38,957 nucleotides of DNA from an uncultured Anaerolineae bacterium (GTDB lineage Bacteria; Chloroflexota; Anaerolineae; VGOG01), in NCBI GenBank assembly GCA_964446635.1, contig CAYUPJ010000011.1, positions 1 to 38,957 on the forward strand, written 5' to 3'. Shown here piece after piece: positions 2,201 through 34,675 of this stretch. Every line of letters begins with the position of its first letter. Positions within the stretch are counted from its first letter, which is position 1. The position numbers and the translations under genes were made by a program. Below the pieces are notes generated by a model. It was not told where the DNA came from. It searched no databases and saw nothing but the letters and a program-made list of their open reading frames with translations.

Positions 2201-2288
2201 GCGTCAAACGTCAAGCGTCAAGGTAGTTGTTATTCAGTTGATAGCGCGAGCACCTCTCGCCGCCGATTCGCTGATTCGCTCATTCGCT
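2201..2288. repeat. Intergenic short tandem repeats: CGTCAAR x3 (2201-2223) and SATTCGCT x3 (2265-2288)
   Basis: Direct reading: gcgtcaaacgtcaagcgtcaagg and gattcgctgattcgctcattcgct. Confidence 0.8.
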
Positions 2289-2340
2289 TAGCCTCGTCGT
2301 TGGCAATCCAAGGCGAGGTGTTTTTGTCTTGGAGGATCAA

Positions 2341-3954
2341 ATGAAAACGATAAGCCTCAATGGAGAGAGCTTGACCATCGAAGGTGTGGTAGATGTAGCC
2401 AGGAGCTGGGTGGCTCCTGAGGCGATACAGGTCAAGATTGCAGCAGAGGCTCAGGAGAAGATCGAGCGAGCCCGGCGGGCCGTGGAAGAGTTCATAGAGC
2501 GCGGTGAGATCATCTACGGCATCACCACCGGATTTGGTGCTTTCAAAGACAAGATCATCTCGCCAGAGCAGACAGAACAGCTCCAGCGCAACTTGCTTAT
2601 GAGCCACGCCGCAGGGGTGGGCGATCCTCTCGATGAGGCTACCGTGCGGGCCACAATGCTCATCCGAGCCAACACGCTGGCCAAAGGGCACTCAGGTATA
2701 CGCTTGAAGACCCTCGAAGCCTTGCTGGCTCTGATCAACCGAGGGGTGCATCCTGTCGTCCCTGCCAAGGGTTCCCTGGGAGCCAGTGGCGATTTGGCCC
2801 CCTTGGCCCATACGTCTCTGGTCCTCATCGGCGAGGGGGAAGCTGATTATCAAGGGGAGAGGTTACCCGGCGCCGAAGCCTTACGCCGAGCCGGTCTGAC
2901 TCCTGTGGAACTGGGGGCTAAAGAGGGCCTGGCACTGATCAACGGCACGGCAGTGATGGCGGCCATTGGAGCTCTAACCACCTGGCGGGCAGAGCGCCTG
3001 AGTCGCGTGGCCGACATCGCTGGGGCTCTGAGCCTGGAGGCCCTGCACGGCATGCCCCAGGCGTTCGACGAGCGCATCCACGCCGTCCGCCCTCATCGCC
3101 ACCAAATAGATTGTGCCACCCACCTCCGCTGCCTCATCGAAGGCAGCGAATTCCTTCGCTTCCACGATTCCCACCATGTCCAGGATGCTTATACCCTGCG
3201 TTGCATCCCTCAGGTCCACGGCGCTGTACGCGCTGCCATCTCCCACGCCCGTCAGGTGGTGGAGACGGAGCTGAATTCTGCTACCGACAACCCCCTCATT
3301 TTCTTCGAGGACGATGGCAGAGCCACTTGTGTCTCCGTTTGCCTATCAGGGGGCAATTTCCACGGCGAGCCGGTGGCACTGGTCATGGACTACCTGGCTA
3401 TCGCCTTGGTCGCATTGGGTACCATCTCCGAGCGGCGATTGGCCCGCCTTCTCGACGCGACCAGTAACCAGGGCACACTGCCGGCCTTCCTCATCAAGCG
3501 GGGTGGCTTGAATTCAGGGTTCATGATGACCCAGTACACAGCGGCGGCCCTGGCTTCGGAGAACAAGGTCTTGGCCCATCCGGCCAGTGTGGATACTATC
3601 CCCAGCTCGGCCAACGTCGAGGATCACGTCAGCATGGGGTGTACCGCTGCCCGCAAGGCGCGGGAGGTGTTGGAAAACACGGAGAGCATACTGGCCATGG
3701 AGCTTCTGGCCGCTGCTCAAGGCATAGATTTCCGGCGGGAGATGCTGGGCGGAAATCCTCGGCTTGGAAGGGGAAGTACCGTCGCCTACGAGCTGATCCG
3801 ACAACGGGTGCCCTTCTTAGAGCACGACGCCATCATGTATCCCTACATTGAGGCAGTGCGTGAACTGGTTAGCAGTGGGGAATTGGTGCAGGCGGTGGAG
3901 GGGGCGATAGGGAGCAGAGGAGCAAGGGAGCAGGGGAGCAGGGGAGAAGCCTAA
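2341..3954 (+). CDS. hutH: histidine ammonia-lyase (MIO-dependent aromatic amino acid ammonia-lyase family)
   Basis: Ala-Ser-Gly MIO motif in GSLGASGDLAPLAH. N-terminus fits HAL. ATG 2341 has GGAGG 5 nt upstream; the track start at 2329 is an upstream TTG. The C-terminal 17 aa are encoded by a GC-rich tandem repeat (3901-3954). Confidence 0.88.
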   Translation: MKTISLNGESLTIEGVVDVARSWVAPEAIQVKIAAEAQEKIERARRAVEEFIERGEIIYGITTGFGAFKDKIISPEQTEQLQRNLLMSHAAGVGDPLDEATVRATMLIRANTLAKGHSGIRLKTLEALLALINRGVHPVVPAKGSLGASGDLAPLAHTSLVLIGEGEADYQGERLPGAEALRRAGLTPVELGAKEGLALINGTAVMAAIGALTTWRAERLSRVADIAGALSLEALHGMPQAFDERIHAVRPHRHQIDCATHLRCLIEGSEFLRFHDSHHVQDAYTLRCIPQVHGAVRAAISHARQVVETELNSATDNPLIFFEDDGRATCVSVCLSGGNFHGEPVALVMDYLAIALVALGTISERRLARLLDATSNQGTLPAFLIKRGGLNSGFMMTQYTAAALASENKVLAHPASVDTIPSSANVEDHVSMGCTAARKAREVLENTESILAMELLAAAQGIDFRREMLGGNPRLGRGSTVAYELIRQRVPFLEHDAIMYPYIEAVRELVSSGELVQAVEGAIGSRGAREQGSRGEA

Positions 3955-3977
3955 CCAAGTTGGGCGTTAACGGGGAC

Positions 3978-10168: not shown

Positions 10169-10286
10169 CGTCTTTCACCTGCCAACGTATGGATGCAAAT
10201 ACCATACCACATTGTGGCCAAAAGTCAAATTCTGGCTTTTTGCACTGAACCCGACTATAGTGTATAATAAGACCCATGATAGACGC

Positions 10287-10368
10287 CGTGAAACGTGAAA
10301 ACCTGAAACGTGAAACGTGAAAACGTGTTACATGAAAAGCAGTTCGCGTTTCACGCTTCACGTTTGAC
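10287..10368. repeat. Inverted arrays of GTGAAAC / GTTTCAC heptamers forming a long potential hairpin in the rtcA-flp divergent region
   Basis: cgtgaaacgtgaaaacctgaaacgtgaaacgtgaaaacgtg, then after a spacer cgtttcacgcttcacgtttgacg. A TATAAT box at 10263-10268 sits just upstream. Confidence 0.7.
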
Positions 10369-10384
10369 GAGAGGAGGTCAAGAG

Positions 10385-10537
10385 GTGATACCATTTCTAT
10401 CGCGTGAAGAAGGACAGGGGCTGATTGAATATGCCCTGATCATCGTTCTGGTGGCTATCGTCGTCATCGCTATCTTGCTGTTGCTGAGTGATGTGATCCC
10501 AGGATGGCTGGACAAGATCCTCGACTTCATCAGTTAG
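10385..10537 (+). CDS. flp: Flp family type IVb pilin
   Basis: VIPFLSREEGQGLIEYALIIVLVAIVVIAILLLL carries the Flp motif (EGQGLxEYALIL) and a hydrophobic helix. GTG start 7 nt after GGAGG. The track ORF from 10310 is a spurious upstream extension through the repeat array. Confidence 0.8.
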   Translation: MIPFLSREEGQGLIEYALIIVLVAIVVIAILLLLSDVIPGWLDKILDFIS

Positions 10538-11324: not shown

Positions 11325-11358
11325 ATTGTTGCCTGCTTGGGTGGGCAACCTGCGTGAT

Positions 11359-11380
11359 GCGTCAAGCGTCAAATGTCAAA
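11359..11380. repeat. GTCAAR heptamer tandem repeat
   Basis: gcgtcaagcgtcaaatgtcaaa, the same unit family as 2201-2223 and 33019-33047. Confidence 0.7.
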
Positions 11381-14977: not shown

Positions 14978-16270
14978 TTACTTGCTGGTGTCTCCCTTGT
15001 GGCGATCGCTTCCTTCGCTCTTGGGTGACACAGTGCCCTCCCTCTGAACGGTCTCAAGGAACATCCGCTCAAGTGACGGCGGGACCAGCCCAGCCTCACC
15101 GAGCTTCTCCAAATAGCGAAGCATGGCATAATCTGTTACGTCTGCCCCAGTCTGCGAGATGAATTCCTTGATCCGGTGGCTCTCAACTCTGGATCTTTGG
15201 TTTTCTAGTTCCTCCTCTTTTCTCGCCTTTTCGAAGGCCAGGGCTTGCTCCTCGATTTCCCGCGGCGCCTCGATTCCAACTTCCACCCGGTGAATTCTCA
15301 CCCCCCATGCGATCGCTGTAGCGCTCAAGGAGGTTTGCAGTTTAGCTTGTAGGAGTTGTGCATGAGTTTCTGGGCCTGCCTTTTTACGGGAACCCTTCTT
15401 GACGGGGGTGTAGATTTCGTCGAGGTAGCATGTGCATATCATATCGCGGAGTAGGGCAAGGGCAGCCCCAATGGTATATGCTTTCCAATCTGGCACAAGG
15501 TATACGGCATTGAACACTGCAGGTTCAGAAAACGGATACATGTTATCGCGTGTAGGCGGGCGGCTTCCAGGATCGATTTGGAAGAACACCTTGACATGAG
15601 TGTTCAGTGGAATTCCATCTCTAGTGGAAAAGGTCTGCGTTCTTTCCTCCACTTGCATGCGCAAATCAACGACTGCTCGTATCGTTTCGAAAGGCTTCTT
15701 TATCACAAAACCGGGCCCTGACACCTGGCTAGGGCATCCGAAGCGTTCAAAGACCACGGCATTTCCGTGATTGATAACCGTATAACCGACCGTTCTCGCT
15801 GGAGCGAACAAGCTCCTCGATTTTATGATTCTCACTTCGCCCCCGCTGACGAGCTCAAGAGGTCCTGCACGCTCAAGCAGCACTGACTCTATCAAGTAGA
15901 CAAAGGATTCCCACCGATCAACTCCTTGGAAAACAAAGATCATCTCAGAGCATAAGAGCAGTACAGATAAGACTACCGATAGCCAGGAAAGAAGCCCCAT
16001 CACGCCTCCCATGGCAAAGAAGACAATCTCTTCCACACTCATTCCGGGCGGGTTGGGTCCCCTAGCCCGGCCTGCCAAACCGCCAAGCACAAACGCAAGG
16101 ATAAAGGTAGCAAGAAGTATGACGCGTGCCAGACCTGACTCGCGAGCGAGGCGATAGGAGAGGATAGCAATGGCCACAATAACTGCTGCAACTGCAAATC
16201 CTGTGAGTCCAAACAGGAAGTAGGAGAGAATCAAAAGAACTGGGGCACTAAGTACAATCAGTTTTTTCAT
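14978..16270 (-). CDS. SPFH/band-7 (stomatin/flotillin-like) membrane protein with N-terminal TM helices and C-terminal coiled coil
   Basis: Multiple N-terminal hydrophobic helices. Central VINHGNAVVFERFG...GPGFVIKKPFETIRAVVDLRMQV is a typical SPFH core, followed by charged coiled-coil EEQALAFEKARKEEELENQRSRVE. GC is lower than in the flanks. Confidence 0.6.
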   Translation of the reverse strand: MKKLIVLSAPVLLILSYFLFGLTGFAVAAVIVAIAILSYRLARESGLARVILLATFILAFVLGGLAGRARGPNPPGMSVEEIVFFAMGGVMGLLSWLSVVLSVLLLCSEMIFVFQGVDRWESFVYLIESVLLERAGPLELVSGGEVRIIKSRSLFAPARTVGYTVINHGNAVVFERFGCPSQVSGPGFVIKKPFETIRAVVDLRMQVEERTQTFSTRDGIPLNTHVKVFFQIDPGSRPPTRDNMYPFSEPAVFNAVYLVPDWKAYTIGAALALLRDMICTCYLDEIYTPVKKGSRKKAGPETHAQLLQAKLQTSLSATAIAWGVRIHRVEVGIEAPREIEEQALAFEKARKEEELENQRSRVESHRIKEFISQTGADVTDYAMLRYLEKLGEAGLVPPSLERMFLETVQREGTVSPKSEGSDRHKGDTSK

Positions 16271-16632
16271 CGTTGACCTCCTGGACTAGCTCCCACCTGA
16301 CGAAGACATGGTGGTTTCGGAAGTGTAACAGGCTTTTCAGCCTCTGTTAGAGTTCCTTTCAGTATACCATAAAACCGTAAAAAACAGAAGTGACTCTTTG
16401 CTGGAGGTGTATTTCAGTTTTGTGTAACGTGTTTTGACAACTTCGCCCGAGCGTCTTCAGTGGCACCGAACAACGCGGATCGTGCATCGAAAGGGGTAGC
16501 CGAAGGCCAATTCATTACATAATCGCATCCTTCGATACGGTCTTGACCACATCCCGGCTTGCTCAGAGTACTCAACACCAATCTGACAGAAATCTGCTCC
16601 CAAAGTGAAATGCACCTTGCACTGGGTCTTAG

Positions 16633-20528: not shown

Positions 20529-20561
20529 AAATGTAGATATCGGCATAAGAAGTCCGTTCTC

Positions 20562-21242
20562 ATGCCTCTTATAGAGGTAATATTCTCGCATTTTGGCCAG
20601 CGAAGAGGTGAGAGCGTGGTACATTCTGTCGTTTCTACCAGAGCGAGCAATGAGGGTCGCCGTGAGCGGATTCTGCAACTATACTATGACCGCTTGCGTG
20701 ACCTAACGAACTTCTTCTTCGCCGTCAACGCCCTGCTCATCGGGTTGGTAGTGCAATTCGCTCACGATGACCTCCAACAGTTGCTCCTGGCCGTTCTCGG
20801 CTATTCTGGTTCGGTAGCCACACCTTGCATCTATAAGGGTTTTCTCTCGTTGCGCTCGTACCGTGAGGACATGCGCCCGCTGGAGGAATCGCTGGACTAC
20901 GACATTTCTGGGAAGTATGAAAAGCGACTGAAGGGCACGCCGGTGGGGATTGTACGAGTAGCCCTTGTGCGGCTGTGCTTCAGTTTTTTGTTTGCGGGCT
21001 TCTATTTCGCTGCCATTATCTACTTTTTCTACAGGTTATCTGCACTGTATTGCCTCACTCCCCCGTGGTTTAATCTCCTCCTGGGTATTAATCATCTTCA
21101 TGCTAATCTGCTACGTTCCTTGGGTCATTTTTCAACGTCCCGGCAGGCCGGGAGTGATTTGGGCCGTGGTGCGAACGACATAGTGGAGGGAGGTGTAGTT
21201 CATCTTCTGATAAGGAGAAATCAACATGGCTCTATCCCATGA
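20562..21242 (+). CDS. hypothetical membrane protein (start uncertain; in-frame GTG alternative at 20615)
   Basis: Hydrophobic helices FFFAVNALLIGLVVQFA and LCFSFLFAGFYFAAIIYFFY. Overlaps the start of the SIR2 gene by 17 nt. Confidence 0.45.
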   Translation: MPLIEVIFSHFGQRRGESVVHSVVSTRASNEGRRERILQLYYDRLRDLTNFFFAVNALLIGLVVQFAHDDLQQLLLAVLGYSGSVATPCIYKGFLSLRSYREDMRPLEESLDYDISGKYEKRLKGTPVGIVRVALVRLCFSFLFAGFYFAAIIYFFYRLSALYCLTPPWFNLLLGINHLHANLLRSLGHFSTSRQAGSDLGRGANDIVEGGVVHLLIRRNQHGSIP

Positions 21243-23601
21243 AGAAATACGACGCCTCGCTTCCACATTGCGAAAGCAATCACCGGAAGACCGAGAGCTG
21301 TTTGTGAAAATTCTACGGACGGAGGATGTTCTTCCTGGACTCCGAGAGTTACCAGAGGAAGAGCTGAAGGAGTTTCTCGATCTATTGCCTGCCGCTCTAG
21401 CTGAGGAACTACGTAAGGCGCTGGCCGGAGTGGAGATACCGCCGGAACTGATAGACGAGATCCTGCGAGGAAACTGCGTCCTCTTCTTGGGGGCCGGTGT
21501 CTCCTTTGAGGCAGGAATGCCTTCTTCACAACAATTGGTCCGAGCTTTGGGGTACGATCCTAACAATGTGCCCCTAACAATAGCAGCGCAACAATTTGAG
21601 ACTAAACAGGGGCGGACAGAGCTTTGCACCATCATCAAGCGAGAATTCGAGATAGCTGACAAACGTAAGAAATCAGGAAGCTATCAATTCATCGCTAACA
21701 TACCCAAGTTGAACAGCCTAATCATCACTACTAACTACGATAGACTGCTGGAAGAGGCGCTCAAGCGAGAAAAGAAAACACCTTTGACAATCTGTAGGGA
21801 GGCTGAGTTGCCTTCGACGACCGGCCAACCCCATGTGATAGTCAAGCTTCACGGCGACATAGATCAATCCGAGACCGTAGTTATCACCCAAGGAGATTAC
21901 GCACGTTTAGCAGCAAGGCTGCGGGAGCCGGGCGGGTTCGGTGGCTTCCTGGCAACCATTCTTTCCACGCGGATAGTGATCTTCGTCGGGTTCAGCATGG
22001 CCGACGAGGACTTCCGCCTGATCCGCGATTTTATAACTACCCGGATGATTGACTTCGTCGGACGACGCACCCTCAAGCCCCCCTATGCCATCATGCCATG
22101 GGGGGAAGCAGAGGCCAAGGTGCTCGAAAGCCAATTGAACATCAAGGTCATTCGCGGCGAAGCAAAAGACTTCTTCGCCGCCATCTTTCGCCGCACCAGC
22201 GAATTCCTGAATCGGGAGGATGAATTGCGGGAGGTATGCGAGGTCCGAAAGGAACCATTCGTGGAGATTGTGGGTCCTGCTGGCTCCGGCAAGACGATGC
22301 TTTTGAGTGGCATAGAGACCTTCTATCGGATTCAGCGAGGCTTTAACCTGATAGTTTCCATCGCTTTGGAGGAAAAGGAAACCCCTCAAATGCTATCGCG
22401 GCGGCTGGCTGACCAATATAAATTGAGTTTAGATAAATTGGAGGATGACTTAAGAGGGACCTTAGTTCTTTTCACTTTCGACGGAACTGAAAGAGCCCCT
22501 GAGGCTGTACGTTGGCTGGAGCGGGAATTGCTGCCCAGATTAAGAAGAATATGGACCACGGATCTACACACCGACCTGGAGTTGGGCAGTGGGCGGGTGA
22601 TCTTCGCCGGCCGGCAGCATTTCCTTTGGCAATCCGTCACCCGGTTCCACCTCTATTCGCTGATCCTGACTCCTTTCCCGCACGGTGCCGTTGAAGATAT
22701 GGCCGGGAAGTATTACTTCCTCTTCAGGAGAGAAATGCCCTCAGCTCTAGAGAAGAAACGAATCGCCCAGGCTATTCTATCCCTCACCGGCACGGGACAC
22801 GCCGGGTTCATCAAAACCGTTCTGTACAAGATCACTGATGACAAGAAACTGCCAAAGGAGCAATATCCTTCGGCGGCCGATCTGGTCCGCTATATCGAAG
22901 AGCACACCGATGAGTTTCTCGAATGGAAACTGGTGCCTCAACTAAACAATGAGATTTTGAAAGGGGCAGAAGAACCTATCTTGCGGTCATTAGAGGATGT
23001 AATTTGTGTCTTCCGTCGTCTCAACAATTCGATTTTAACGAGTTTGCCCCAAAGAGGACTGGATCAATATGGTGTAGACGAGACCTGGTTCACCAAACCG
23101 GACGCGCTACTGAGAGCACTAGATAGTCTGCATATATTGAGCAAACCGGATGCCCGCAGCCCGATGTATCGGCTGGATCCGGTAGTGGGCTTTCTCCTCT
23201 CCGCGTGGCTCAGAAGAAAGAATTCAGGGGAGCTTTATCGCAAAGACCACGAGGTCGCGCTGGACATCTGCGACGAAGGAGTGCAACGCACTCCTAACCA
23301 TTTCCAGTTGGCCTATGCTCTAGAGGGGCTATATCACTTGCAGTGCCTGCGAGAAATCGGGGCCAGCCAGGTGGAACTGGCCGACAAAGCCAGACAATAC
23401 CTGGGTCAATTACGAGGAGCTGAGAATGGAAAGGCATTGGCCATGCAATGGAAAGATGTGGTCATGGAGGATCCCGATCTGAGGTGGAAAGTAGAAGAAG
23501 AAGCCAGAAGGCTCGACAGAACACCGGAGGAGAGGGAAGAGTGGTTGGCTAAGGTTTATGAAGCGCTAACCGCTGCCTTTGACAAGTATCTAGCCCCATG
23601 A
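21226..23601 (+). CDS. SIR2_2 (DHS-like NAD-binding) domain fused to a P-loop NTPase
   Basis: SIR2_2 motifs CVLFLGAGVS, LIITTNYDRLLEEAL, VKLHGDIDQ, IFVGFSMADEDF. Walker A is EIVGPAGSGKTMLL and the probable Walker B is LVLFTFDGTE. AAGGAG RBS. Confidence 0.75.
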   Translation: MALSHEEIRRLASTLRKQSPEDRELFVKILRTEDVLPGLRELPEEELKEFLDLLPAALAEELRKALAGVEIPPELIDEILRGNCVLFLGAGVSFEAGMPSSQQLVRALGYDPNNVPLTIAAQQFETKQGRTELCTIIKREFEIADKRKKSGSYQFIANIPKLNSLIITTNYDRLLEEALKREKKTPLTICREAELPSTTGQPHVIVKLHGDIDQSETVVITQGDYARLAARLREPGGFGGFLATILSTRIVIFVGFSMADEDFRLIRDFITTRMIDFVGRRTLKPPYAIMPWGEAEAKVLESQLNIKVIRGEAKDFFAAIFRRTSEFLNREDELREVCEVRKEPFVEIVGPAGSGKTMLLSGIETFYRIQRGFNLIVSIALEEKETPQMLSRRLADQYKLSLDKLEDDLRGTLVLFTFDGTERAPEAVRWLERELLPRLRRIWTTDLHTDLELGSGRVIFAGRQHFLWQSVTRFHLYSLILTPFPHGAVEDMAGKYYFLFRREMPSALEKKRIAQAILSLTGTGHAGFIKTVLYKITDDKKLPKEQYPSAADLVRYIEEHTDEFLEWKLVPQLNNEILKGAEEPILRSLEDVICVFRRLNNSILTSLPQRGLDQYGVDETWFTKPDALLRALDSLHILSKPDARSPMYRLDPVVGFLLSAWLRRKNSGELYRKDHEVALDICDEGVQRTPNHFQLAYALEGLYHLQCLREIGASQVELADKARQYLGQLRGAENGKALAMQWKDVVMEDPDLRWKVEEEARRLDRTPEEREEWLAKVYEALTAAFDKYLAP

Positions 23602-23628
23602 GCTGTTTTGCCGTTTTAGGAGGATAAC

Positions 23629-26600
23629 ATGGCTATAGAGAATCTAGTTACGCGAAGACTTCACTGGCTAATTGGTCGCCAGAAAGAGAAAGAGGGTATT
23701 GCCCGTGCCATTAAGGGCCAAGGGCCACCAATCCTCTTCCTGGAGGGCATCGCCGGCATTGGAAAAACGGTTCTCCTGGAAGAAGCCAGTCGTATAGCCC
23801 AAGAGTATGGAGCCCTCTGCCCGCCCATCATAGACTTCTACGATACCGATATGCACGCCCACCGGTCTCTGGAGGCGGCCATTGCCCTAAGCCTGGATCC
23901 AAAAAAGAAGGCTTTCCAAGACTATTGGACCCGGCGAGAACAGATGGAACGTACTATGCTGCCGGAACGCAAGACCCAGAAGGAGCAGGAGAAGGAACTC
24001 TGGGGGCTCTTCGTGAAGGGATACACCAACGTGGCAGAGAACCAACGGGTGATGCTGCGTTTCGATACGGCCGAGCGCCTGGAGTACGAACGGGATTCCC
24101 AAGAAGTCTTGACGGATTGCGAGGTCTCGCCTCAGGATGCCCCCAGTTGGGAATGGCTCCTAGAGCGCATCGGCGATCTAGAGAACACAACCTCCCTCAT
24201 TGCCAGCCGTCCCACAGATCTCCTGAAGCAGAGACTCCTTATAACACATGAGGGGCGTGTTCTTACCCTTGAGGTGAAAGGGTTCACTATAGAGGAGACG
24301 GAGGCCTATTTCCGGGCTACCGATTTCGGCAAACAAGTAGCCGATGAGTCCCCAGAGATGGTGAGCAAGGTCCACCTGCTCACCGATGGACGGCCTATCC
24401 TGATCGCCCTGGCCCTGGACTGGCTGCAACGGGGGATGTGGGAACGGCACATCTACCCGGTCAGCCTGGAAGAATTGAGAACTTTGAAGGAGCAGGCTCA
24501 GGAAGAGGAAAAATCCAACCGAAGAGGTGAGGCCTGGTGGAGATGGGACGAGATCAAGCATAGTTTTGAAATCGCTCTGGTGCAGCAGATCCGCAACCTG
24601 AACCACACAGGTCTGGATGTGGCGGTGAAATATACTGCTCTAGCCCGCAGGGGATGCAATGCCGAGCTTCTCTCTCGCCTAATATGGATTTCTCTGGAAG
24701 AGGTAAAGGGATTGGTAAAGCAGCTCCTGACCCTTTCCTTCGTCAGACCGTCACGTGGTCCCCGTAATCTTTTCTTTTTACACGATGAAATGTATGATCT
24801 GGTGGAAAAATATATCTGGCTGGTGGACTGGCCCGATTGCAGTGAGCAGGCCCGGTTAGACAGAGTCATCATAGAGTGGTATACAGAACAAATAGAGGAA
24901 CTCAAGAAGCGTATCAAAACCTCTCGGGACTGGCGGGAACGGGCCGCCTTACGTAGTCAGCAACAACTTCTGACGGCCGAGCGTTTGTACTACCAGCATG
25001 ATGAGGACCCACGGCTCGGCTATCGTGAATACAGCCACTTAGACGAGGAGGCCGTTGGCTCCCGTGAAAACGAATGGGACGTTATGTTGCGAAACGAGGC
25101 TCTGTGGTTCACATCTCACCGGGCTTGGCGGCAGGGGAAATCGATAAGCGTAGTTGGGGGAGAATATCCCCTTCGTGATCCTGCGTGGGTGAGAAATGGT
25201 AAAGTAGAGCGCAGCCCTGCAGTGGATCACGATTGTCGGCGTCGCTGGGTTAACCGCTACATCGCTCGAAATGAGATGGAGAAAGCAGCCCGTGTTGCTG
25301 AGAATCTTCTCAAGAAGGAACCTCGTGAGGGGGAACCCGAATTATACCGAGGTGGTGTACTAATCGCCCTGGCTACGGCCCAGGCGTACATGGGCGGCGA
25401 ATTCTTGGAGCCAGCTCTTCGGAACTTCCAAGAGGGCATTCAACGCTTGGAGAGCGCTCCAGAGGAACACAAGGAACCATGGCTGTATCCCTACCTCTTG
25501 GCCACAGCATACCTCTATCAAGGCTTGGCCCTGCGTAACTCCCTTCGCCTCGGTGAAGCAGTCCGGTCTTATAGTCAGGCCATGCTCCATTATCGGAGCA
25601 TCGGCTACCAAGCCGGCTTGGCTGAGGCGATGAACAACCTGGCCTACATCTACGCCCGCCAGGGACGGCTGGATCAGGCCCTAGCTTCTTGTGAAGAGGC
25701 CCTGCGCATTCGGCAGGAATTGGGTGACGAATATAATGTTGCCCTTAGTCTCAACACCAAAGGGATCGTCTACGAACGGATGGACCGGCCCCTCACGGCT
25801 ATCCACAATAGCGAGCAGGCCTTGGCCCTTTTCAAGGAGATCAACAACGAACGGGGCATCATCCTGGCCGAGATCAACCTGGGACGCTCCTATCGCCGTA
25901 AAGCTCGTAGTCCTGAATGGGGTCAGAAAAACGAAGACTTTGAGGTAGGAAGAGGACACCTGGAAGACGCCATCTACCGGCAGGAGCAAATGGGGGCCAG
26001 CGCCGAGATGTTCTATCGGATCGAGGCCCACAATGAGCTGGGCTGCCTCTATCGGGATTGGGCGGCGACGTTGGTTGACAAGGGTATCAGAGACAGCAGC
26101 AAATTGCTAGAACACCTGGGAGAAGCCGAAAGCCATCTGAATAGAGCCATCGGTCTGGCCACCCAAGAGGGGCAGATACTAACGCGCCATGCAGTGCAAT
26201 ATGCCGACTCTCTGGAGGACTTGGCCCGCGTATACTACTGGCGTGGGAAGTTGGGATTCTCTGTAGGTTCCTGGGCTAAGCAACGTGGCTTTGACAGGCC
26301 TCTGCAGGCGATGAAGAGCCTTCTCGATGAGGCAAAGAGATTGATAGAGGAACGCCTGAAAGAGTGGGAAGAGCTGCGTCTCATCGTGGGCAAAACCCAT
26401 CACCAGTATGCCCGGCTGGCAAGAGAGGAAGCAGAGGAGGAGTCAAAGAGAGACAAACTCGATTACGTTGCTAAGCACTACGCTTGGGCAGCGGCTCTCT
26501 TGGAGAGTTATTCTTTCGATGCGCCTGAATTGCGCAAGACAGTGGCCGATGCCTGTGAGTGGCTGTGTACGCTTCAGCCTCAGGAAGCGAAAGAGCGGGT

Positions 26601-26733
26601 TGAGCAAATGCATTCTACCCTGAAGGCCGACGGGCAAAAGAGCGAGAGATTGAAGGACTGGGTCAACAGTGTTGTTTATCCTCGCCTCGGTGTAGGCTGG
26701 CCTGAGGAAGGGCCGGAGGTGGCCCATGGGTGA
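23629..26733 (+). CDS. STAND-type P-loop NTPase with C-terminal TPR repeat array
   Basis: Walker A is FLEGIAGIGKTVLLEEA and Walker B is VMLRFDTAERL. The C-terminal half has about 8 TPR-like repeats (AYLYQGLALRN..., AEAMNNLAYIYARQGRLDQALASCEEAL, ALSLNTKGIVYER...). GGAGG RBS. Confidence 0.75.
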   Translation: MAIENLVTRRLHWLIGRQKEKEGIARAIKGQGPPILFLEGIAGIGKTVLLEEASRIAQEYGALCPPIIDFYDTDMHAHRSLEAAIALSLDPKKKAFQDYWTRREQMERTMLPERKTQKEQEKELWGLFVKGYTNVAENQRVMLRFDTAERLEYERDSQEVLTDCEVSPQDAPSWEWLLERIGDLENTTSLIASRPTDLLKQRLLITHEGRVLTLEVKGFTIEETEAYFRATDFGKQVADESPEMVSKVHLLTDGRPILIALALDWLQRGMWERHIYPVSLEELRTLKEQAQEEEKSNRRGEAWWRWDEIKHSFEIALVQQIRNLNHTGLDVAVKYTALARRGCNAELLSRLIWISLEEVKGLVKQLLTLSFVRPSRGPRNLFFLHDEMYDLVEKYIWLVDWPDCSEQARLDRVIIEWYTEQIEELKKRIKTSRDWRERAALRSQQQLLTAERLYYQHDEDPRLGYREYSHLDEEAVGSRENEWDVMLRNEALWFTSHRAWRQGKSISVVGGEYPLRDPAWVRNGKVERSPAVDHDCRRRWVNRYIARNEMEKAARVAENLLKKEPREGEPELYRGGVLIALATAQAYMGGEFLEPALRNFQEGIQRLESAPEEHKEPWLYPYLLATAYLYQGLALRNSLRLGEAVRSYSQAMLHYRSIGYQAGLAEAMNNLAYIYARQGRLDQALASCEEALRIRQELGDEYNVALSLNTKGIVYERMDRPLTAIHNSEQALALFKEINNERGIILAEINLGRSYRRKARSPEWGQKNEDFEVGRGHLEDAIYRQEQMGASAEMFYRIEAHNELGCLYRDWAATLVDKGIRDSSKLLEHLGEAESHLNRAIGLATQEGQILTRHAVQYADSLEDLARVYYWRGKLGFSVGSWAKQRGFDRPLQAMKSLLDEAKRLIEERLKEWEELRLIVGKTHHQYARLAREEAEEESKRDKLDYVAKHYAWAAALLESYSFDAPELRKTVADACEWLCTLQPQEAKERVEQMHSTLKADGQKSERLKDWVNSVVYPRLGVGWPEEGPEVAHG

Positions 26734-27733
26734 TTGCGCCTGCGATGTAAGAGCAGACCAGCTCGATCCTTATGCGCCGCTGTCCCATTTCTTTCTGGAA
26801 CTTACCACCGAGTGTAACAACGCCTGTCCCGGTTGTGGCAGCATCTATGCCCATCAGAAGAACGCGCATCCACTGCCCGCAGCCGATTGGCGCACTGTGA
26901 TCGACCGGCTACTGCCCATGACCCCTTGCCTGCGGCTCACGGGTGGGGAGCCTACGCTACACCCTGAGTTTGAGGAGATTGTCGCATACGTCAATGCCCA
27001 AGGCATTCCATTTACCGTCTTTACCAATGCCCGGTGGGAGGACCCGGATGCCGTGATCCGCATTATGGCGGATAAACAACATCTAGAGGGTATCTTGGTG
27101 TCCATTCACGGGGCACGGGCTTCCTCTCACGAAGCATTCACTGCGGCTCCTGATTCTTTTGACGAAGCGGTGGATAATACTCGCCGAGCGTCCGAGGCAG
27201 GGGTACGGGTTGTGACCAGCACTGTCATCACCCACCAGAACTATCACGAAATAGAAGAGATTGTGGCACTAACCCAAGCCATTGGGGTGGATCGAGCGAC
27301 GTTTAGCCGTTTCATTGGACCGCCTTTGCCCGAGATCGAGACAAGCGAAGGTGAGCTCGAAGTGGCTGTGCAGGCTATCGAGCTATTAATAGATAATGGA
27401 CACTATCCCGAAGGTGGCGGAGAGGCGATTCGCTACGGGGCGCCCATTCCCCGTTGTTTTACTGACAATCGTTCCAACGGGTGTATGGCGGGGTTCGTCC
27501 ATGCAACCATTGATCCGTGGGGGAACTTGCGACCATGCCCTCACGTGCCAATAATCGCGGGTAACGTGTTGGAACAAGACTTTGATACAATCTGGTATTC
27601 TCTGACTATGGAAACTTGGCGGAAGGGACTGCTGGCTCAGTGTGATGGTTGCCCCATCGCGGGTGAATGTCGCAGCGGATGTCAGGCACAGGCCATGTGG
27701 AGAAAGACATTGCGGGATCCACTTATTCAGTGA
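26726..27733 (+). CDS. radical SAM enzyme with C-terminal SPASM/twitch Cys-rich domain
   Basis: CNNACPGC is the CxxxCxxC radical-SAM cluster motif and GGEP is the SAM-binding motif. The C-terminal cysteines CFTD...CMAG...CPH...CDGCPIAGECRSGC fit a SPASM-like auxiliary-cluster domain. The start overlaps the upstream stop (ATGGGTGA). Confidence 0.85.
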   Translation: MGDCACDVRADQLDPYAPLSHFFLELTTECNNACPGCGSIYAHQKNAHPLPAADWRTVIDRLLPMTPCLRLTGGEPTLHPEFEEIVAYVNAQGIPFTVFTNARWEDPDAVIRIMADKQHLEGILVSIHGARASSHEAFTAAPDSFDEAVDNTRRASEAGVRVVTSTVITHQNYHEIEEIVALTQAIGVDRATFSRFIGPPLPEIETSEGELEVAVQAIELLIDNGHYPEGGGEAIRYGAPIPRCFTDNRSNGCMAGFVHATIDPWGNLRPCPHVPIIAGNVLEQDFDTIWYSLTMETWRKGLLAQCDGCPIAGECRSGCQAQAMWRKTLRDPLIQ

Positions 27734-27973: not shown

Positions 27974-29190
27974 CTACCACGATGGCCCACGTTTGTTTTC
28001 ACCATCCTCCTCGGCTACAGCCGACTGGGCTGCGGCGTACACTTCGGCCAGAGGCACGCCGTGTTCCCGCGCGATCCGCGCGCAATCTTCGTATTCTGGG
28101 GCGGAGGCGAGGGTTTCATCGCCAAGCAACTTCTCTTTGACCCGGACTGCGCCCCACGCAGTCTGGACCTCTCGCACCCTTCGCCCGGCCTTCCAGCGGT
28201 GCAGGGGTGGGGTGATGCGCAGGCCCAGGGTCGGGGTTTCGCGCAGGACAATAAGTCCCAGGGTCTCGGCCTGGCCTGCTGGAGCCAATACGGAGAGCAT
28301 GGTCGCCGGGCGGTTCTTCTTCATGAAGATGGGGGTGAACCATACGTCCAGGGCGCCGGCGGCGAACAAACGCTCCATCGCGTAGCCCAGGGCCTCGCCG
28401 GTGACGTCGTCCAGGTTGCATTCCAGGAGCACGACCTGGTCTGCCTCGGTCGGCGCGGGATGGAACGGCTCGCCCAGCCAGACGCGCAGGCTGTTGGGCC
28501 AGGGAAACTCCTTGTCACCGAAGCCGATCCCCACAGCCTGGACTTTCATCGGGGGGCGTTGGAAACGGGCCAGCTCGGCCAGGAGGGCGGCCGCAGTGGG
28601 GGTGACCAGCTCGGTTTGGGCGGGATGGGGCACGGTCGGCGCTCCCACTTCGGACAGGAGGGCCAGGGTGGCCGGTGCAGGCACTGGCAGGAGGCCGTGC
28701 TCGGTTTCGATAAACCCGCTGCCCAATGGCAGGGGCGAGGCGTAGACCGCTGTCACGTCCAGGACGTGCAGCCCGGCCACTACCCCCACGATGTCCACGA
28801 TGCTGTCCACCGCACCGATCTCGTGGAAATGGATTTCGTCTTCAGGGATGCCGTGCACGCGAGCCTCGGCGCGGGCCAGCCGTGCGAATACGGCCCGGCT
28901 GCGGGCTTTCACTTCGGGGGGAAGGGCGCTGACCTCGATGATGGCGTACACGTCCCGTGGATGGCGAGCGGGGCGTGCGCCCAATGTATCGCGCACGTGG
29001 AGCTTGCTACCAGCCATTCCGTGGCGCACCTGGCGTTCCAGCTCCAGCTCGTAGCCCTCCAGATGGAGCTTGTTCAACTCAGCTTGCAGGCGTTCCAGCG
29101 GTAGTCCCGCATCGAGTAGCGCGCCGAGCAGCATGTCGCCGCTGGCCCCACTGAAACAGTCAAAGTAAACGATTCGTGACGCTATGGTAC
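27974..29190 (-). CDS. larC: nickel-pincer cofactor biosynthesis protein LarC (nickel insertase)
   Basis: IVYFDCFSGASGDMLLGALLDAGL, HFHEIGAVDSIVDIVG, PLGSGFIETEHGLLPVPAPA, NLDDVTGE and MKKNRPATML are collinear with L. plantarum LarC. The true start is unclear (no ATG near SRIVYFDC); the track start runs through the TGCGTGT repeat. Confidence 0.85.
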
Positions 29191-29213
29191 CTCCCTGGTA
29201 TTGGGATTGAACT

Positions 29214-29243
29214 GTTGCGTGTTGCGTGTTGCGTGTTGCGTGT
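29214..29243. repeat. TGCGTGT heptamer x4
   Basis: ttgcgtgttgcgtgttgcgtgttgcgtg. It is the inverted partner of the 29728-29783 array. Confidence 0.8.
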
Positions 29244-29711
29244 CTACGGCATAGGCGGGTTGTCAAGCAGGTCTGTTAGATCCACATCGTAGGATGCCCG
29301 TTCTTCTTTCAGCTTATAGCCGCGCTCGGCGGGGATAATGGTGAGTAACAGGCGGATGATGTTGGTCAAAAGCTTAATGCGATGCGTGGCAACGGTCTCT
29401 GAGAGGACGTGTCGCCCTTGACGATACCAGCCGCGAGACTCGCGGGCCGAGCCCAGGGCATACTCGTAGAAGCGGGCTTGATCTCTACCAGACCGGCGGC
29501 TATAACCCTCGGCAACGTTGGCGCTGATGGAGCCGACGGCCCGATACAACTGATCGGCCAGACTGACAGTACGCTTGTCCTGGATCAGCCTGGACACATC
29601 TAGCCACACCAGGTCACCGACGAAGACAGCGAGCCGATAAACCTCCATCCGCCAAAGAGGGTCACCGGTGAATTCTGGAGGGACAGAAGCCAGCCAATCG
29701 TTGTAATCCAT
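29244..29711 (-). CDS. four-helix-bundle protein (23S rRNA intervening-sequence protein family, TIGR02436-like)
   Basis: YRLAVFVGDLVWLDV...LYRAVGSISANVAEGYSRRSGRDQARFYEYALGSARESRGWY is the characteristic motif set of this family. Confidence 0.7.
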   Translation of the reverse strand: MDYNDWLASVPPEFTGDPLWRMEVYRLAVFVGDLVWLDVSRLIQDKRTVSLADQLYRAVGSISANVAEGYSRRSGRDQARFYEYALGSARESRGWYRQGRHVLSETVATHRIKLLTNIIRLLLTIIPAERGYKLKEERASYDVDLTDLLDNPPMP

Positions 29712-29727
29712 TGAGAGCTCCTTCTAA

Positions 29728-29783
29728 CCACGCAACACGCAATACGCACCACGCAATACGCACCACGCAATACGCACCACGCC
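29728..29783. repeat. ACGCAAY/ACGCACC heptamer x8
   Basis: accacgcaacacgcaatacgcaccacgcaatacgcaccacgcaatacgcaccacgcc. Reverse-complement family of the 29214-29243 array; together they flank the four-helix-bundle gene. Confidence 0.8.
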
Positions 29784-30536: not shown

Positions 30537-31380
30537 GCTTCAGAACCTCGTTCATGCTGCCGGAACGGAAGCCAGCCAGGTCGAGGGCCACGTAGACGTA
30601 GCCCAGCTCCCGCAGGCGAGCCACGATGCGGGCCCGCGCATCTTCGGCCAGCAGACGCGACCAGTCGGCGGTTTCGATCTCCAGGCGGGCGACAGGATGG
30701 TGGTCACGCACGCGGAGACTCTCCAGCCCGAACTCGGCGCGCAGGAAGGCCTCCGCTGCCTCCACGCGGTGCAGCCCTTCCCCGGTGAGCTGTGTGCCAT
30801 AGGGAAAGCGGGTGGCCAGGCAAGCCTGGGCAGGCCGGTTCCACACGGCTAGCCCTTTCTCGCGGGCCAGTCGGCGTATCTCCGCCTTGGTCAGCCCGGC
30901 CTCCAGCAGCGGGGCGCGCACGCCCAACTCCTGGGCAGCGCGGTTGCCCGGCCGATAGTCGCCCGCGTCGTCGGCGTTGGCGCCGTGGACCACGTGGGCC
31001 TGCCCTGAGCCCCGTCGAAGGGCCAGCCCTTCTTCCTGGGCGCTGGCGATGATGGCGGCCAACACCTCGCGCTTGCACCAATAGCAGCGGTCCGGAGGGT
31101 TAGCGGAGAAACGAGGGTTGTCCAGCGGGTGGAGGCGGATGGTGCGATGGCGCACGCCCAGGTGGTGGGCAAGCTCACGCGCGGCGGCGATTTCCTCGCG
31201 GGGATGAATCTCGGCGTCGGCAGTGACGGCCAGCACGTTTTCCGAGCCGAGCACGTCCAGGCACTCTGCCAGCAGATAAGTGCTGTCCACCCCGCCGGAG
31301 AAGGCTACTACGGCGCTGCCGATCTCAGCGATAATCTGCCTCAGGCGCGCCGTCTTTCGCCCATTCGCCCATTCGCCCAT
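30529..31380 (-). CDS. larE: ATP-dependent sacrificial sulfur transferase LarE (PP-loop ATPase)
   Basis: PP-loop VAFSGGVDSTYLL. CYWCKRE. ACLATRFPYGTQLT corresponds to the LarE sacrificial Cys loop (SCSVSSRFPYGT). C-terminal YVALDLAGFRSGSMN. The N-terminus is ambiguous: three in-frame ATGs lie inside the CATTCGCCC nonamer repeat. Confidence 0.8.
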   Translation of the reverse strand: MGEWANGRKTARLRQIIAEIGSAVVAFSGGVDSTYLLAECLDVLGSENVLAVTADAEIHPREEIAAARELAHHLGVRHRTIRLHPLDNPRFSANPPDRCYWCKREVLAAIIASAQEEGLALRRGSGQAHVVHGANADDAGDYRPGNRAAQELGVRAPLLEAGLTKAEIRRLAREKGLAVWNRPAQACLATRFPYGTQLTGEGLHRVEAAEAFLRAEFGLESLRVRDHHPVARLEIETADWSRLLAEDARARIVARLRELGYVYVALDLAGFRSGSMNEVLKHD

Positions 31381-31429
31381 TCGCTCATTCGCCCATTCGC
31401 TCATTCGCCCATTCGCCCATTCGCCCATT
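31356..31429. repeat. CATTCGCYC nonamer x8 at the 5' end of larE (in-frame, period 9)
   Basis: cattcgcccattcgcccattcgctcattcgcccattcgctcattcgcccattcgcccattcgcccatt. On the minus strand it encodes MGEWANGRMSEWANERMGEWANGR. Confidence 0.85.
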
Positions 31430-32745: not shown

Positions 32746-32997
32746 CAAATTAGCAGTACCTCCTACCCCCTCCCTCACCCTCCCCCGTCAAGACGGGGGA
32801 GGGCAGGGGTGGGGGATTGCAGCTTTGTCAGCTTGAAGTTTACCAGATTGTGGCCGAATAGTCAAGGCCGTTTTCCCGATTTTACTTTTTGCCTCAATTG
32901 GTATAGAATAAGCACCGAACTGGTGAGGGGGGATGTTAACCTAGCCATTTTGGATCCACTGATGCTGAGTAGAAAACGAAATCGGGAGGGTTAGCTG

Positions 32998-34560
32998 ATG
33001 AAAGCCATACTTCCAGTAAAACGTCAAACGTCAAACGTCAAGCGTCCAACTTCCAACTTCCAGCTTCCAACTTCCAACTTCAAAGTTGTCCTGGCGAGCT
33101 TGCTGATCAGCTTGTTGGTGCTGGTCTTCCCTCAAATGCTGAGGGTGGAGGGGGCGACGGTTCCCCCAGTGGAGGCCAGCGACAATGGGCTGCTATATAG
33201 AGCCAGGATCGTGCTCAGCACGTCCTCCGATTGGACACGGCTCTACGTTCGCAGCGGGGAGCGAATTCTCAACGTCCAAACCACGATCCTGCAGGGCAAC
33301 GCCGCCACAACGCGAGTTGGGTGGAACAAGGACGAGCTCTACCTGGAGCAACCTCTGACCGACGCTCTGACCAATCTGGTCAAGGTGCAGTACGATTTGG
33401 TGATGACAGGCCTCGAGAAGGACACCCATCTCTTCTTTGAGAATCAGAAAGGCGATTTGGGCGTTGCCACGGCGGAGCTCTATAACTACAACTCGCAGAT
33501 AGCCACCCCTATCGCCTCTTGGTCCAATTTGCTTGATGTTTCGGGTGATCCTGCCAACCCCTTCTCCTTCTCTATAGCTGATTCCCACTTCACCACGGGT
33601 GGCCCTCTGCCCCAGTCCCCTGTGTTTCCCAAATTGGTCTTGGCTTTCTACTATCCTTGGTATGATGCTGATTCCTGGTCGAGTCCCGTTCTCGAGGATC
33701 ATCCTCTTCTTCCCTATAGCTCTGACGACCTGGAGGCCATCACCCGGCACGTCACCTGGGCGCGGCAGTACGGCATTAACGGCTTCATCTCCTCTTGGTG
33801 GGGTTCGGGTAACTATCGGGACATGAACTTCGCCAAACTCCTCACCGCAATAGAAGGCACCGATTTCAGGGCCACCATCTACTTTGAGACCCTCAGCGAA
33901 CGTTTTCGGACAACTCAAGATGTGATCAATCAGTTGGAGTACGTCTTGGCTTCCTACAGCCATCACCCCAACTTCTTGCGCCATCGCGGTAAGCCAGTGG
34001 TTTTCCTCTACGCGGTTGAAAGCGTGGTCAGAAACCCGGGCCAAAGCCCTCTCCAGGCCTGGCAGGCCATCCTCGGTCAAATCCGAGCCGATGGCTACGA
34101 TGCGGTGTGGATCGGCCAGACCTTTGATCCGAGCTATCTGGAGGTGTTCGATGGCCTGCATGCCTATGGCTTCTATGCCCCAGATCTACCCGAAATATAT
34201 TCCTTGGTTTCAGGACAGGTGAGGGCCTATCCGTTCCTGCAGGACCCAAACGCTGGGAGGAAAATCTGGGCGCCGGCGGTGATGCCTGGCTATGATGATG
34301 ACCTCTTGCGTCGGCCTAACTCCTGGTATCTCGATCGAGCTGGTGGCGATACCTATGGCTTCACTTTCCAGGCGGCCATCCAGTCCCAGGCCGATTGGAT
34401 TGTCATCACCAGCTTCAACGAGTGGTGGGAGCATACCCACATTGAGCCCAGCGAACGCCACGGTTTTACTTACCTTGAGCTGACCAAGCAATGGTCAGAC
34501 ACCTTTCTAGCAGGAGCTCTTCACCCCGTTCTCCTGCCCATACTCACCAAGAACTGGTAA
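32998..34560 (+). CDS. secreted TIM-barrel glycoside hydrolase-like protein (GH99-like YYPWY motif)
   Basis: GGGAGGG RBS 7 nt before ATG 32998. A long basic n-region is encoded by heptamer repeats, followed by the hydrophobic stretch VVLASLLISLLVLVFP. Core has AFYYPWYDADSW...GINGFISSWWGSG. Confidence 0.45.
   Translation: MKAILPVKRQTSNVKRPTSNFQLPTSNFKVVLASLLISLLVLVFPQMLRVEGATVPPVEASDNGLLYRARIVLSTSSDWTRLYVRSGERILNVQTTILQGNAATTRVGWNKDELYLEQPLTDALTNLVKVQYDLVMTGLEKDTHLFFENQKGDLGVATAELYNYNSQIATPIASWSNLLDVSGDPANPFSFSIADSHFTTGGPLPQSPVFPKLVLAFYYPWYDADSWSSPVLEDHPLLPYSSDDLEAITRHVTWARQYGINGFISSWWGSGNYRDMNFAKLLTAIEGTDFRATIYFETLSERFRTTQDVINQLEYVLASYSHHPNFLRHRGKPVVFLYAVESVVRNPGQSPLQAWQAILGQIRADGYDAVWIGQTFDPSYLEVFDGLHAYGFYAPDLPEIYSLVSGQVRAYPFLQDPNAGRKIWAPAVMPGYDDDLLRRPNSWYLDRAGGDTYGFTFQAAIQSQADWIVITSFNEWWEHTHIEPSERHGFTYLELTKQWSDTFLAGALHPVLLPILTKNW
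33019..33085. repeat. CGTCAAA x3 followed by CAACTTC/CAGCTTC x5 heptamers inside the 5' end of the GH99-like gene
   Basis: aacgtcaaacgtcaaacgtcaagcgtc caacttccaacttccagcttccaacttccaacttcaaag. Confidence 0.8.
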
Positions 34561-34675
34561 ATCGGGAAACTGGGAAACTGGTAAATTGGGACACGATTCA
34601 CCAACCTACCAATTTACCAATCTGCCAATCTACCAACCTACCAATTTACCAATCTACCAATTTACCAATCTACCG
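34553..34675. repeat. GGAAACT/GGTAAAT heptamers then ACCAAYYT octamer x9, an inverted pair
   Basis: actggtaaatcgggaaactgggaaactggtaaattggg ... accaacctaccaatttaccaatctgccaatctaccaacctaccaatttaccaatctaccaatttaccaatctacc. ggtaaattgg is the reverse complement of ccaatttacc. Confidence 0.8.

Follow-up and report, generated by a model that had tools for sequence, protein, structure and literature searches.

Introduction

Heptameric long simple sequence repeats (SSRs) have been described in Xanthomonas, where the unit is GGGAATC, and in Nostoc, where it is GGGGAYT (Rehm 2015, PMC4692102), and the short tandemly repeated repetitive (STRR) sequences of Calothrix PCC 7601 comprise three tandem heptanucleotides (cited in PMC4692102). 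Direct repeats of TAACTGA are known from Beggiatoaceae, cyanobacteria and Bacteroidetes (MacGregor 2015, PMC4679880). The intervening sequences (IVSs) that interrupt 23S rRNA form another class of element, and that of Coxiella has a 28-bp terminal stem which is cut in mid-stem by RNase III (PMC4990558). Here we analyse 38,957 nt of DNA from an uncultured Anaerolineae bacterium (contig CAYUPJ010000011.1 of assembly GCA_964446635.1; this whole stretch is referred to as the window), which carries a set of tandem arrays with units of 7 or 8 nt, one pair of which encloses a gene of the protein family PF05635.

We consider it reasonably probable that these arrays are slippage-prone hairpin elements and that the pair enclosing the gene is a gene-bearing version resembling the rRNA IVSs that are cut by RNase III. 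Because the excess of heptamer SSRs, convergent pairs, and the GGGGAYT and TAACTGA repeats have all been published, the general kind of repeat is already known. In the open-access full texts searched we found no account of heptamer repeats in Chloroflexota, or of heptamer repeats linked to four-helix-bundle/S23p genes, which is no proof of novelty.

Results

Arrays of 7- and 8-nt units lie at gene ends

Arrays were detected with Tandem Repeats Finder (TRF), apart from the array at 11352-11380, which was confirmed by pattern search instead. Every array listed in an initial annotation of the window was recovered (periods of 7 or 8 nt or multiples of these, 3.3-9.4 copies), and one that it had not listed, GGGAGCAG x4.6, was found at 3910-3946. 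The annotation had put the unit length at 7-9 nt. Units of 7 and 8 nt are indeed present, but the array at 31356, read there as CATTCGCCC x8, consists of the 8-nt unit CATTCGCY in 9.2 copies, and the range is therefore 7-8 nt. The window contains ten arrays of period 7 or 8 that score at least 36, as compared to a mean of 0.06 and a maximum of one in 100 first-order Markov simulations. No array has its midpoint more than 78 nt away from the end of a gene, although zones within 100 nt of gene ends make up just 24% of the window. The intergenic location first proposed holds only in part, since three loci (four TRF arrays) occupy the first or last ~90 nt of a coding region, namely the 3′ end of a histidine/aromatic ammonia-lyase gene (HAL) and the 5′ ends of larE and of a gene encoding a GH99-family protein. 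Units recur between loci, as the annotation had recognized: pattern searches of the window matched CGTCAAR x3 at four separate loci (with zero expected) and the CATTCGCY unit at two. In these properties (units of 5-11 nt, at least three head-to-tail copies, an excess over chance and a position away from gene interiors) the arrays agree with long SSRs.

The arrays share with the heptamers of Xanthomonas and Nostoc (PMC4692102) their tandem 7-nt units and a mostly intergenic position near the ends of open reading frames (ORFs). They differ in occurring in another phylum, in having units that are not of the G-quadruplex type, and in including octamers. They also resemble cyanobacterial STRRs, which are tandem heptamers dispersed in the non-coding DNA of filamentous bacteria, although the host of the window is a member of Chloroflexota and not a (heterocystous) cyanobacterium. 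The STRR units are CCCCAGT (STRR1), TTGGTCA (STRR2) and CAACAGT (STRR3). A search for arrays of these three units returned none, the only matches being of two units and at chance level; STRRs are a good analogy for the arrays of the window, which do not belong to them.

The arrays at 2200 and 2261 have the same sequence in two independent Logan assemblies (contigs L121 and L123), across which these short arrays are invariant, and they are therefore not inventions of the assembler. Logan contigs that carry larB (L124 and L125) terminate precisely within two of the long arrays, 29729-29782 and 31356-31429. With short-read contigs breaking at such places, the copy numbers given for these arrays in the metagenome-assembled genome (MAG) may be wrong, and the unitig ends would fit with the arrays being artefacts of a metagenome-assembled contig. 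However, the same arrays recur in independent assemblies, the array of the GH99 gene has an orthologue in the related contig L223, and the same architecture is seen in finished plasmids and in hundreds of contigs. The artefact that the initial annotation had named as one outcome that would overturn its proposal is thus extremely improbable. An Rfam search of the window identified no known RNA family and no rRNA.

A cassette with array arms is inserted between larB and larC

The initial annotation had described inverted pairs of arrays tens of bp apart. The arrays at 29213-29243 and 29729-29782 are complementary but stand 485 nt apart, and they enclose a gene that had been missed. This gene (29244-29711, minus strand) encodes a 155-aa four-helix-bundle protein that matches PF05635 (23S_rRNA_IVP; E = 2.6e-15) and TIGR02436 (E = 4.5e-17) as well as the PDB entry 2gsc from Xanthomonas, and we refer to it and its homologues as IVP genes. 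Both arrays are described here on the gene strand (the minus strand of the window). The 5′ terminal array, (KTGCGTR)x7.7 (29729-29782), lies 17 nt 5′ of the IVP start codon, and the 3′ terminal array, a perfect (CACGCAA)x4.4 (29213-29243), begins 2 nt after the IVP stop codon. Together with the gene they make up a cassette of ~570 nt (29213-29782) that is co-directional with larB and larC, the order on the gene strand being the larB stop codon, 52 nt of unmatched sequence, (KTGCGTR)x7.7, the ribosome-binding site (RBS) and ORF, (CACGCAA)x4.4, 27 nt containing GGGAGG, and larC. A 26-bp stem joins the two arrays in both the minimum free energy and the centroid folds of a putative 606-nt transcript.

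The cassette and those 23S rRNA IVSs that contain an S23p/PF05635 ORF, such as the ones from Coxiella and Leptospira, involve one protein family, and in both the ORF is located inside terminal inverted repeats with a predicted stem of ~26-28 bp (PMC4990558). Both are also sporadic among relatives, which indicates gain. In contrast to the rRNA IVSs, which are found at helix 9, 25 or 45, the cassette lies in a protein-coding operon, larE-larB-larC, and its arms consist of tandem heptamers whose copy number varies. Cleavage by RNase III is suggested here by analogy. A link between heptamer arrays and a PF05635 gene is not mentioned for the Xanthomonas and Nostoc heptamers in PMC4692102.

The IVP gene is absent between larB and larC in four relatives (L223, L225, L241 and L246; LarB identity 87-91%), where the two genes are separated by a spacer of 13 or 36 nt or overlap. 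As larB stands directly next to larC in these relatives, the cassette is an insertion in the lineage of the window. The left junction, TCAAATCC, and the right junction, TTCAATCC, resemble the start of the L241 spacer, and this near-repeat may, on weak grounds, be a target duplication, with seven of eight positions matching and the ends of the element not independently defined. We note that larC has ATA (29183-29185, minus strand), 5 nt after GGGAGG, at the position where three relatives carry ATG; this could be a non-canonical start, a sequencing error or an effect of the cassette insertion. The sole in-frame upstream start, the TTG at 29266, would read through the 3′ array.

IVP genes at other loci and in other phyla are flanked by arrays

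Close IVP homologues (73-86% identity to the protein of the window) occur in other gene neighbourhoods. Those with 76-79% identity are found between rpe and glgP and between the genes for a sigma54 activator and a DUF6785 protein, with TTGCGTG-type units upstream and their complement downstream. A scan of metagenomes that selected on the protein alone, within the Chloroflexota subfamily, yielded 80 loci (64-86% identity), in gene neighbourhoods that differ according to the annotated or called examples. Arms were counted at the 73 loci where the contig extends for 100 nt or more to either side of the gene. An upstream array is present at 68 of these 73 loci and a complementary downstream array at 71, and 66 have both arms in the form (TTGCGTG)n ... 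(CACGCAA)n. The runs comprise 2-14 units, and the background level is ~0.1 run per 150 nt. The two arms covary at unit position 7 (r = 0.74-0.75, permutation p <= 0.0005), and 50% of units have an exactly complementary counterpart, as compared to 31.5% in shuffled locus pairings. Contigs with close IVP homologues mostly measure only 1-2 kb, which fits with arrays fragmenting assemblies.

When a distant IVP homologue was compared with plasmids by tblastn, 32 records were found, mostly from Nostocales. Our sample of 14 of these 32 records is drawn from cyanobacteria, Riemerella (Bacteroidota), Gemmatirosa (Gemmatimonadota) and Azospirillum (Alphaproteobacteria). Short-period arrays adjoin the IVP ORF in all 14 homologues, and thus in four phyla, and about 12 of them are complementary pairs; the PF05635 genes of cyanobacterial plasmids are bracketed by heptamer arrays just as the gene of the window cassette is. 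The units are lineage-specific (for example GGGTGTA/CTACACC, GGGAACA/TGTTCCC, GGTGACA/TGTCACC and AAGGTTY/RAACCTT). The homologues are co-directional with their neighbours in 13 of the 14 cases, and pairing the two flanks of one gene gives a longest helix of 15 bp (median), as against 9 bp when flanks from different loci are combined. In all samples drawn, array arms are the rule for PF05635 genes. On three cyanobacterial plasmids (L230, L235 and L238) the IVP genes and their array arms are located inside CRISPR (clustered regularly interspaced short palindromic repeat)-cas operons (cas10|cmr3, cas6|cas4 and before cas4).

CGTCAAR arrays are typical of the lineage and often paired with their complement

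The spread of CGTCAAR arrays was assessed by scanning one genome per species for the exact sequence CGTCAARCGTCAARCGTCAA, which gave at least 120 loci. Chloroflexota (Anaerolineae, Thermoflexia and Caldilineae) account for 64 of the 120 CGTCAAR x3 matches listed, with several loci per genome and at least eight in one. The repeat system thus extends beyond the window, as the initial annotation had anticipated, and its view that the host is not obviously cyanobacterial is borne out by the nearest homologues of the 155-aa protein and of LarB, and by the syntenic contigs, all of which come from Anaerolineae/Chloroflexota MAGs. Look-ups of the exact IVP and Lon sequences gave no match. Arrays of 7-8 nt are typical of this Anaerolineae (Chloroflexota) lineage. 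Further 7-8 nt arrays, many of them in inverted pairs, accompany CGTCAAR in Chloroflexota, Bacteroidota, Ignavibacteria, Gemmatimonadota and other phyla.

At the Chloroflexota loci the usual layout has (CGTCAAA)n and (TTTGACG)n, in this order, on either side of a loop of 4-60 nt, directly 3′ of a stop codon or 5′ of an RBS. With a complementary partner defined as a two-unit match of at least 12/14 within 100 nt, 22 of 59 arrays (37%) have a partner, as compared to 0 of 108 control segments, which upholds the short-range pairing described in the annotation. The order CGTCAAA then TTTGACG is favoured over the reverse by 18 to 4. An ORF-less hairpin of this sort is present in the window, where (CGTGAAA)x5.6 (10287-10338, plus strand) forms the 5′ arm and (GTTTCAC/GTTTGAC)x3 (10347-10369, plus strand) the complementary 3′ arm. 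This hairpin lies 5′ of a Flp pilin gene (10385-10537), between a promoter-like TTTGCA-18-TATAAT (10239-10268) and the pilin RBS, and hence probably in the 5′ untranslated region. In keeping with the expectation that inverted pairs would fold stably, its predicted free energy is -36.7 kcal/mol (z = -4.0 versus shuffles), and the fold of the partly complementary arrays at 34552-34591 and 34600-34674 is also more stable than shuffles (z = -2.8).

Inverted pairing is shared with Xanthomonas, for which 70-75 convergent inverted pairs are given (PMC4692102). The TAACTGA repeats (PMC4679880) are like the arrays in being intergenic heptamers just 5′ of start codons and in their patchy occurrence among phyla, but have a single unit in forward orientation and almost no inverted pairs. 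The lineage of the window, by contrast, uses many units without a bias in orientation, and inverted pairs are frequent.

Hairpins without an ORF that are built from cassette units occur in other spacers of cassette contigs (L148, L152, L155, L194 and L203). Repetitive extragenic palindromic (REP) elements and REPINs are short intergenic hairpins dispersed in many copies, of which rarer inverted copies flank a protein gene, the REP-associated tyrosine transposase (RAYT). The array hairpins are likewise dispersed, palindromic and intergenic (the 22 of 59 Chloroflexota loci, and 10287-10369), and their ORF-less and ORF-bearing forms share contigs. Their arms, however, are tandem repeats and not a fixed palindrome of ~20 nt, and the gene that they flank encodes a small bundle of helices that is not known to act as a transposase, whereas RAYT is a Y1, IS200-like transposase. 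No RAYT gene was found when the 37 ORFs of the window were scanned against Pfam.

At a Thermoflexia locus (L092) a close IVP homologue is preceded by (CGTGAAA/CGTCAAA)x11, which ties this type of cassette to the dominant unit family of the window, and three non-Chloroflexota IVP genes among the CGTCAAR-seeded loci (two in L014, one in L051) also adjoin arrays. In addition, CGTCAAR arrays follow a GTCCGAA-type array inside the apparent interdomain linker of a FAD/NAD-binding oxidoreductase (L021 1311-1338, L022 6747-6774 and L100 6673-6693), one shared site in three species with differing copy numbers.

Arrays change by whole units and grow in place

Seven metagenome contigs that contain the cassette between the sigma54 activator and DUF6785 genes (the P0074 cassette) differ solely by a 14-nt (two-unit) indel in the upstream array. 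As the contigs are the same at every other position, the indel directly attests to polymorphism by slippage. Two arrays of the window, moreover, are absent in relatives that retain a seed at the same position, and have therefore grown in situ. One is the octamer array (AATGGGCG)x9.2 (31356-31429, minus strand) at the 5′ end of larE; the LarE of relatives begins MPRQQTDSWANETAIKTARLR, and the DNA at this place contains no array but only a proto-repeat (TCATGGGCAAATGAAAC). The other is (ACCAAYYT)x9.4 (34600-34674, plus strand), an octamer array in the spacer between the GH99 gene and lon. The corresponding spacer of L223 is without this array but keeps the seed GGGACTTGATTCACCAA (…GATTCACCAA…). 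It is to the octamer array (GGGAAACT/GGTAAATT)x5 (34552-34591, plus strand), which overlaps the GH99 stop codon, that the ACCAAYYT array is partly complementary. Arrays thus change by whole units, and the slipped-strand change in copy number put forward in the initial annotation is supported by both kinds of observation. The heptamers of Xanthomonas and Nostoc also vary in length between close relatives while their type, single or paired, is kept (PMC4692102).

The GH99 gene provides a case within a coding region. Its product is predicted to be membrane-anchored, and (CGTCAAA)x4.6 (33019-33050, plus strand) encodes an in-frame N-terminal tail that is continued by (CAACTTC)x5.3 (33045-33081, plus strand). 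The L223 orthologue has (CGTCAAR)x~8.5 and no CAACTTC block, and the arrays are in frame in both genomes, encoding K/R-rich heptad tails ahead of the membrane anchor.

The 5′ ends of larE and of the GH99 gene have the hallmark of contingency loci, a repeat unit within the coding region that is not a multiple of three, and single-unit slippage might, as in the phase variation raised by the initial annotation, switch genes through frameshifts there or through altered spacing at the pilin gene and hpf. With nine units, translation from the native ATG of larE (31444; RBS GGAGG) would run in the wrong frame into a TGA. Each third unit supplies an in-frame ATG, the one in the first unit, at 31428, being 19 nt away from the RBS. 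The GH99 array stays in frame in two genomes despite its difference in length, a two-unit polymorphism exists in a related population, and some of the neighbours (Flp pilin, membrane GH99) are surface-related. Most arrays, however, are located 3′ of stop codons or, as hairpins, separate housekeeping genes (hpf, lon, the lar operon), the polymorphism was observed in an untranslated arm of a cassette, and the lineage is free-living and not host-adapted. We therefore think it very unlikely that switching of this kind accounts for the arrays.

Remaining arrays and gene content of the window

Directly 3′ of stop codons stand the arrays at 2200 and 34552, the former being (CGTCAAR)x3.3 (2200-2222), which starts 1 nt 3′ of the stop codon of the ORF 1816-2199. 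The octamer array (SATTCGCT)x3.5 (2261-2288) is situated ~40 nt 5′ of the HAL gene. The array at 3910-3946 (plus strand), also of an octamer, occupies the last ~45 nt of the same ORF, where it encodes a low-complexity C-terminal tail; the Pfam domain of the lyase ends ahead of this tail, at residue 491 of 541. Finally, (CGTSAWR)x4 (11352-11380, plus strand) abuts the RBS of hpf (AAGGAAAGGAG), whose start codon is the ATG at 11399.

That several arrays adjoin an RBS (those of hpf, the pilin gene and many Chloroflexota loci), together with the similarity of TTGACG to a -35 hexamer, would be in line with arrays that are reiterated sites for a sequence-specific RNA- or DNA-binding regulator, as has been suggested for the TAACTGA repeats of Beggiatoaceae, or arrays of -35-like TTGACG boxes. 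Binding by a dedicated protein had also been raised in the initial annotation. We consider such a role slightly less probable still than contingency switching, for the 39-kb window holds many different units, CGTCAAR shows no bias in orientation with respect to neighbouring genes (13 vs 7), arrays also lie 3′ of stop codons and within coding ends, and between phyla the units are wholly different while the architecture is kept.

Gene content was determined from the Pfam scan. The window encodes RodZ, L9, the aromatic/histidine ammonia-lyase, type III CRISPR proteins, RtcA, Flp pilin, a ComF-like protein, HPF and glycosyltransferases, followed by a lower-GC island (15000-27700; GC 48-56% vs 58-69%) with SIR2-like/AAA, NACHT-TPR and radical-SAM/SPASM genes, whose gene content suggests a defence island. 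Beyond the island are larC, larB, larE, and genes for a CHU_C-like protein, the membrane GH99-family protein and Lon. The island contains no 7-8 nt arrays, with ~5 expected at the density of the remaining window.

A palindromic element of ~90 nt (34686-34775; GTCATTGCGAGCGAAGCGAAGCAATCC ... GGAGATTGCTTCGTCGCAAGAAACGCTCCTCGCAATGAC) between the ACCAAYYT array and lon resembles a separate family like miniature inverted-repeat transposable elements or REP sequences. A hairpin of a pyrimidine run and a purine run (ccctcccc...gggagggg; 32760-32815) is present 3′ of the CHU_C-like gene, and an element resembling it is found in the GH99-lon spacer of L223 (2215-2290). Between the GH99 and CHU_C-like genes, relatives have a gene of the FolC/Mur-ligase family (L223 3946-5286) where the window has a 220-nt spacer (32779-32997).

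Other classes of element were rejected: a CRISPR array, since the units are too short and there are no spacers; intrinsic terminators, since there are no T-runs and none was flagged at the arrays; and a diversity-generating retroelement, since no reverse transcriptase domain is encoded among the window ORFs.

Discussion

We propose that the arrays are 7- and 8-nt SSRs, located at gene ends and characteristic of an Anaerolineae lineage, that would be prone to slippage. Their typical form is a convergent inverted pair, (unit)n-loop-(complement)n, which would fold as a hairpin at the RNA level or as a cruciform at the DNA level. Copy number would shift fast by slipped-strand mispairing, and short local seeds can give rise to arrays in situ, even within the codons at the start or end of a gene. 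The pair at 29213-29243 and 29729-29782 would then be a gene-bearing version, a cassette with a 26-bp stem around a PF05635 gene that inserted co-directionally between larB and larC, and whose stem would most likely be cut by RNase III to release a small mRNA and separate the flanking cistrons. By analogy with rRNA IVSs, the stems most likely act in RNA, as RNase III sites. The co-directional placement of the cassette suggests that it relies on read-through for its transcription. We infer that the hairpins without an ORF and the cassettes with a gene represent a single dispersed family of elements in two forms, and the protein may have a role in spreading or binding the arrays.

Several observations weigh against this proposal. 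The IVP gene is found at only one of the 64 Chloroflexota CGTCAAR-seeded loci, and most arrays are therefore not beside such a gene; the arrays and the IVP gene may or may not be causally linked. The covariation between arms is inflated by shared ancestry among cassettes at orthologous sites (upstream of hemC and gnd, as judged by eye). The stability of the arm duplex is equal in the sense and antisense directions (38/69, p = 0.40), with no G.U signature favouring RNA, and therefore does not discriminate between selection on RNA and on DNA. The CGTCAAR arrays, as noted above, lack an orientation bias. The Pseudanabaena plasmid L235 has direct arrays, (AAAGCTA)x14 upstream and (AAAGCCA)x11 downstream of its IVP gene. 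The extra insertion flanks of 52 and 27 nt match no other cassette, and no transposase, reverse transcriptase or RNase III gene was detected among the window ORFs by the Pfam scan.

Some of these features would be expected if the arrays were neutral, microsatellite-like by-products of slippage wherever a seed exists, the bias towards gene ends arising from selection elsewhere and the hairpins and the gene link being incidental. The in situ growth of the larE and lon-spacer arrays from local seeds, the fast turnover between relatives, and the lack of both CGTCAAR orientation bias and sense/antisense asymmetry are consistent with this idea, and the excess of heptamer SSRs has been ascribed to polymerase slippage in literature cited in PMC4692102 and PMC4679880. 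On the other hand, identical units occur at unrelated loci and in many species, arrays pair with their complement (22/59 vs 0/108) in a preferred order (18 vs 4), the arms covary, and arrays are present at 66/73 and 14/14 PF05635 genes. A purely neutral origin is for these reasons unlikely. With a few unit families such as CGTCAAR and TTGCGTG spread over many unrelated loci and species, we consider that these behave as a dispersed family of hairpin elements and not as independent accidents.

A more far-reaching idea, which we put forward tentatively and think somewhat doubtful, is that PF05635 (Avd/S23p-like) genes and heptamer-array hairpins constitute one two-part selfish system across many phyla. 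A gene-bearing 'master' cassette would be accompanied by many ORF-less hairpin copies, much as RAYT is by REPINs, and the protein would bind, protect or propagate the arrays. Were this the case, cyanobacterial STRRs, the heptamer pairs of Xanthomonas and Nostoc, and rRNA IVSs would have a common origin, and a function would be assigned to a very large family of unknown function, for PF05635, with 4620 homologues at E <= 1e-5 in our search, has none assigned.

For the annotation of MAGs, the arrays matter in that they break short-read assemblies, make or destroy start codons (as at larE) and add low-complexity tails. An over-representation of heptamer repeats in bacterial genomes has been reported, and STRRs have been used as fingerprinting markers. 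The link between arrays and IVP genes can be tested where transcriptome data exist or are obtainable, such as in Nostoc PCC 7120 and in Xanthomonas, a transcriptome of the latter having been analysed in PMC4692102. This link may help to explain heptamer repeats such as the cyanobacterial STRRs, and it would tie together three loose ends, namely STRR-like repeats, the IVSs of rRNA and the four-helix-bundle genes.

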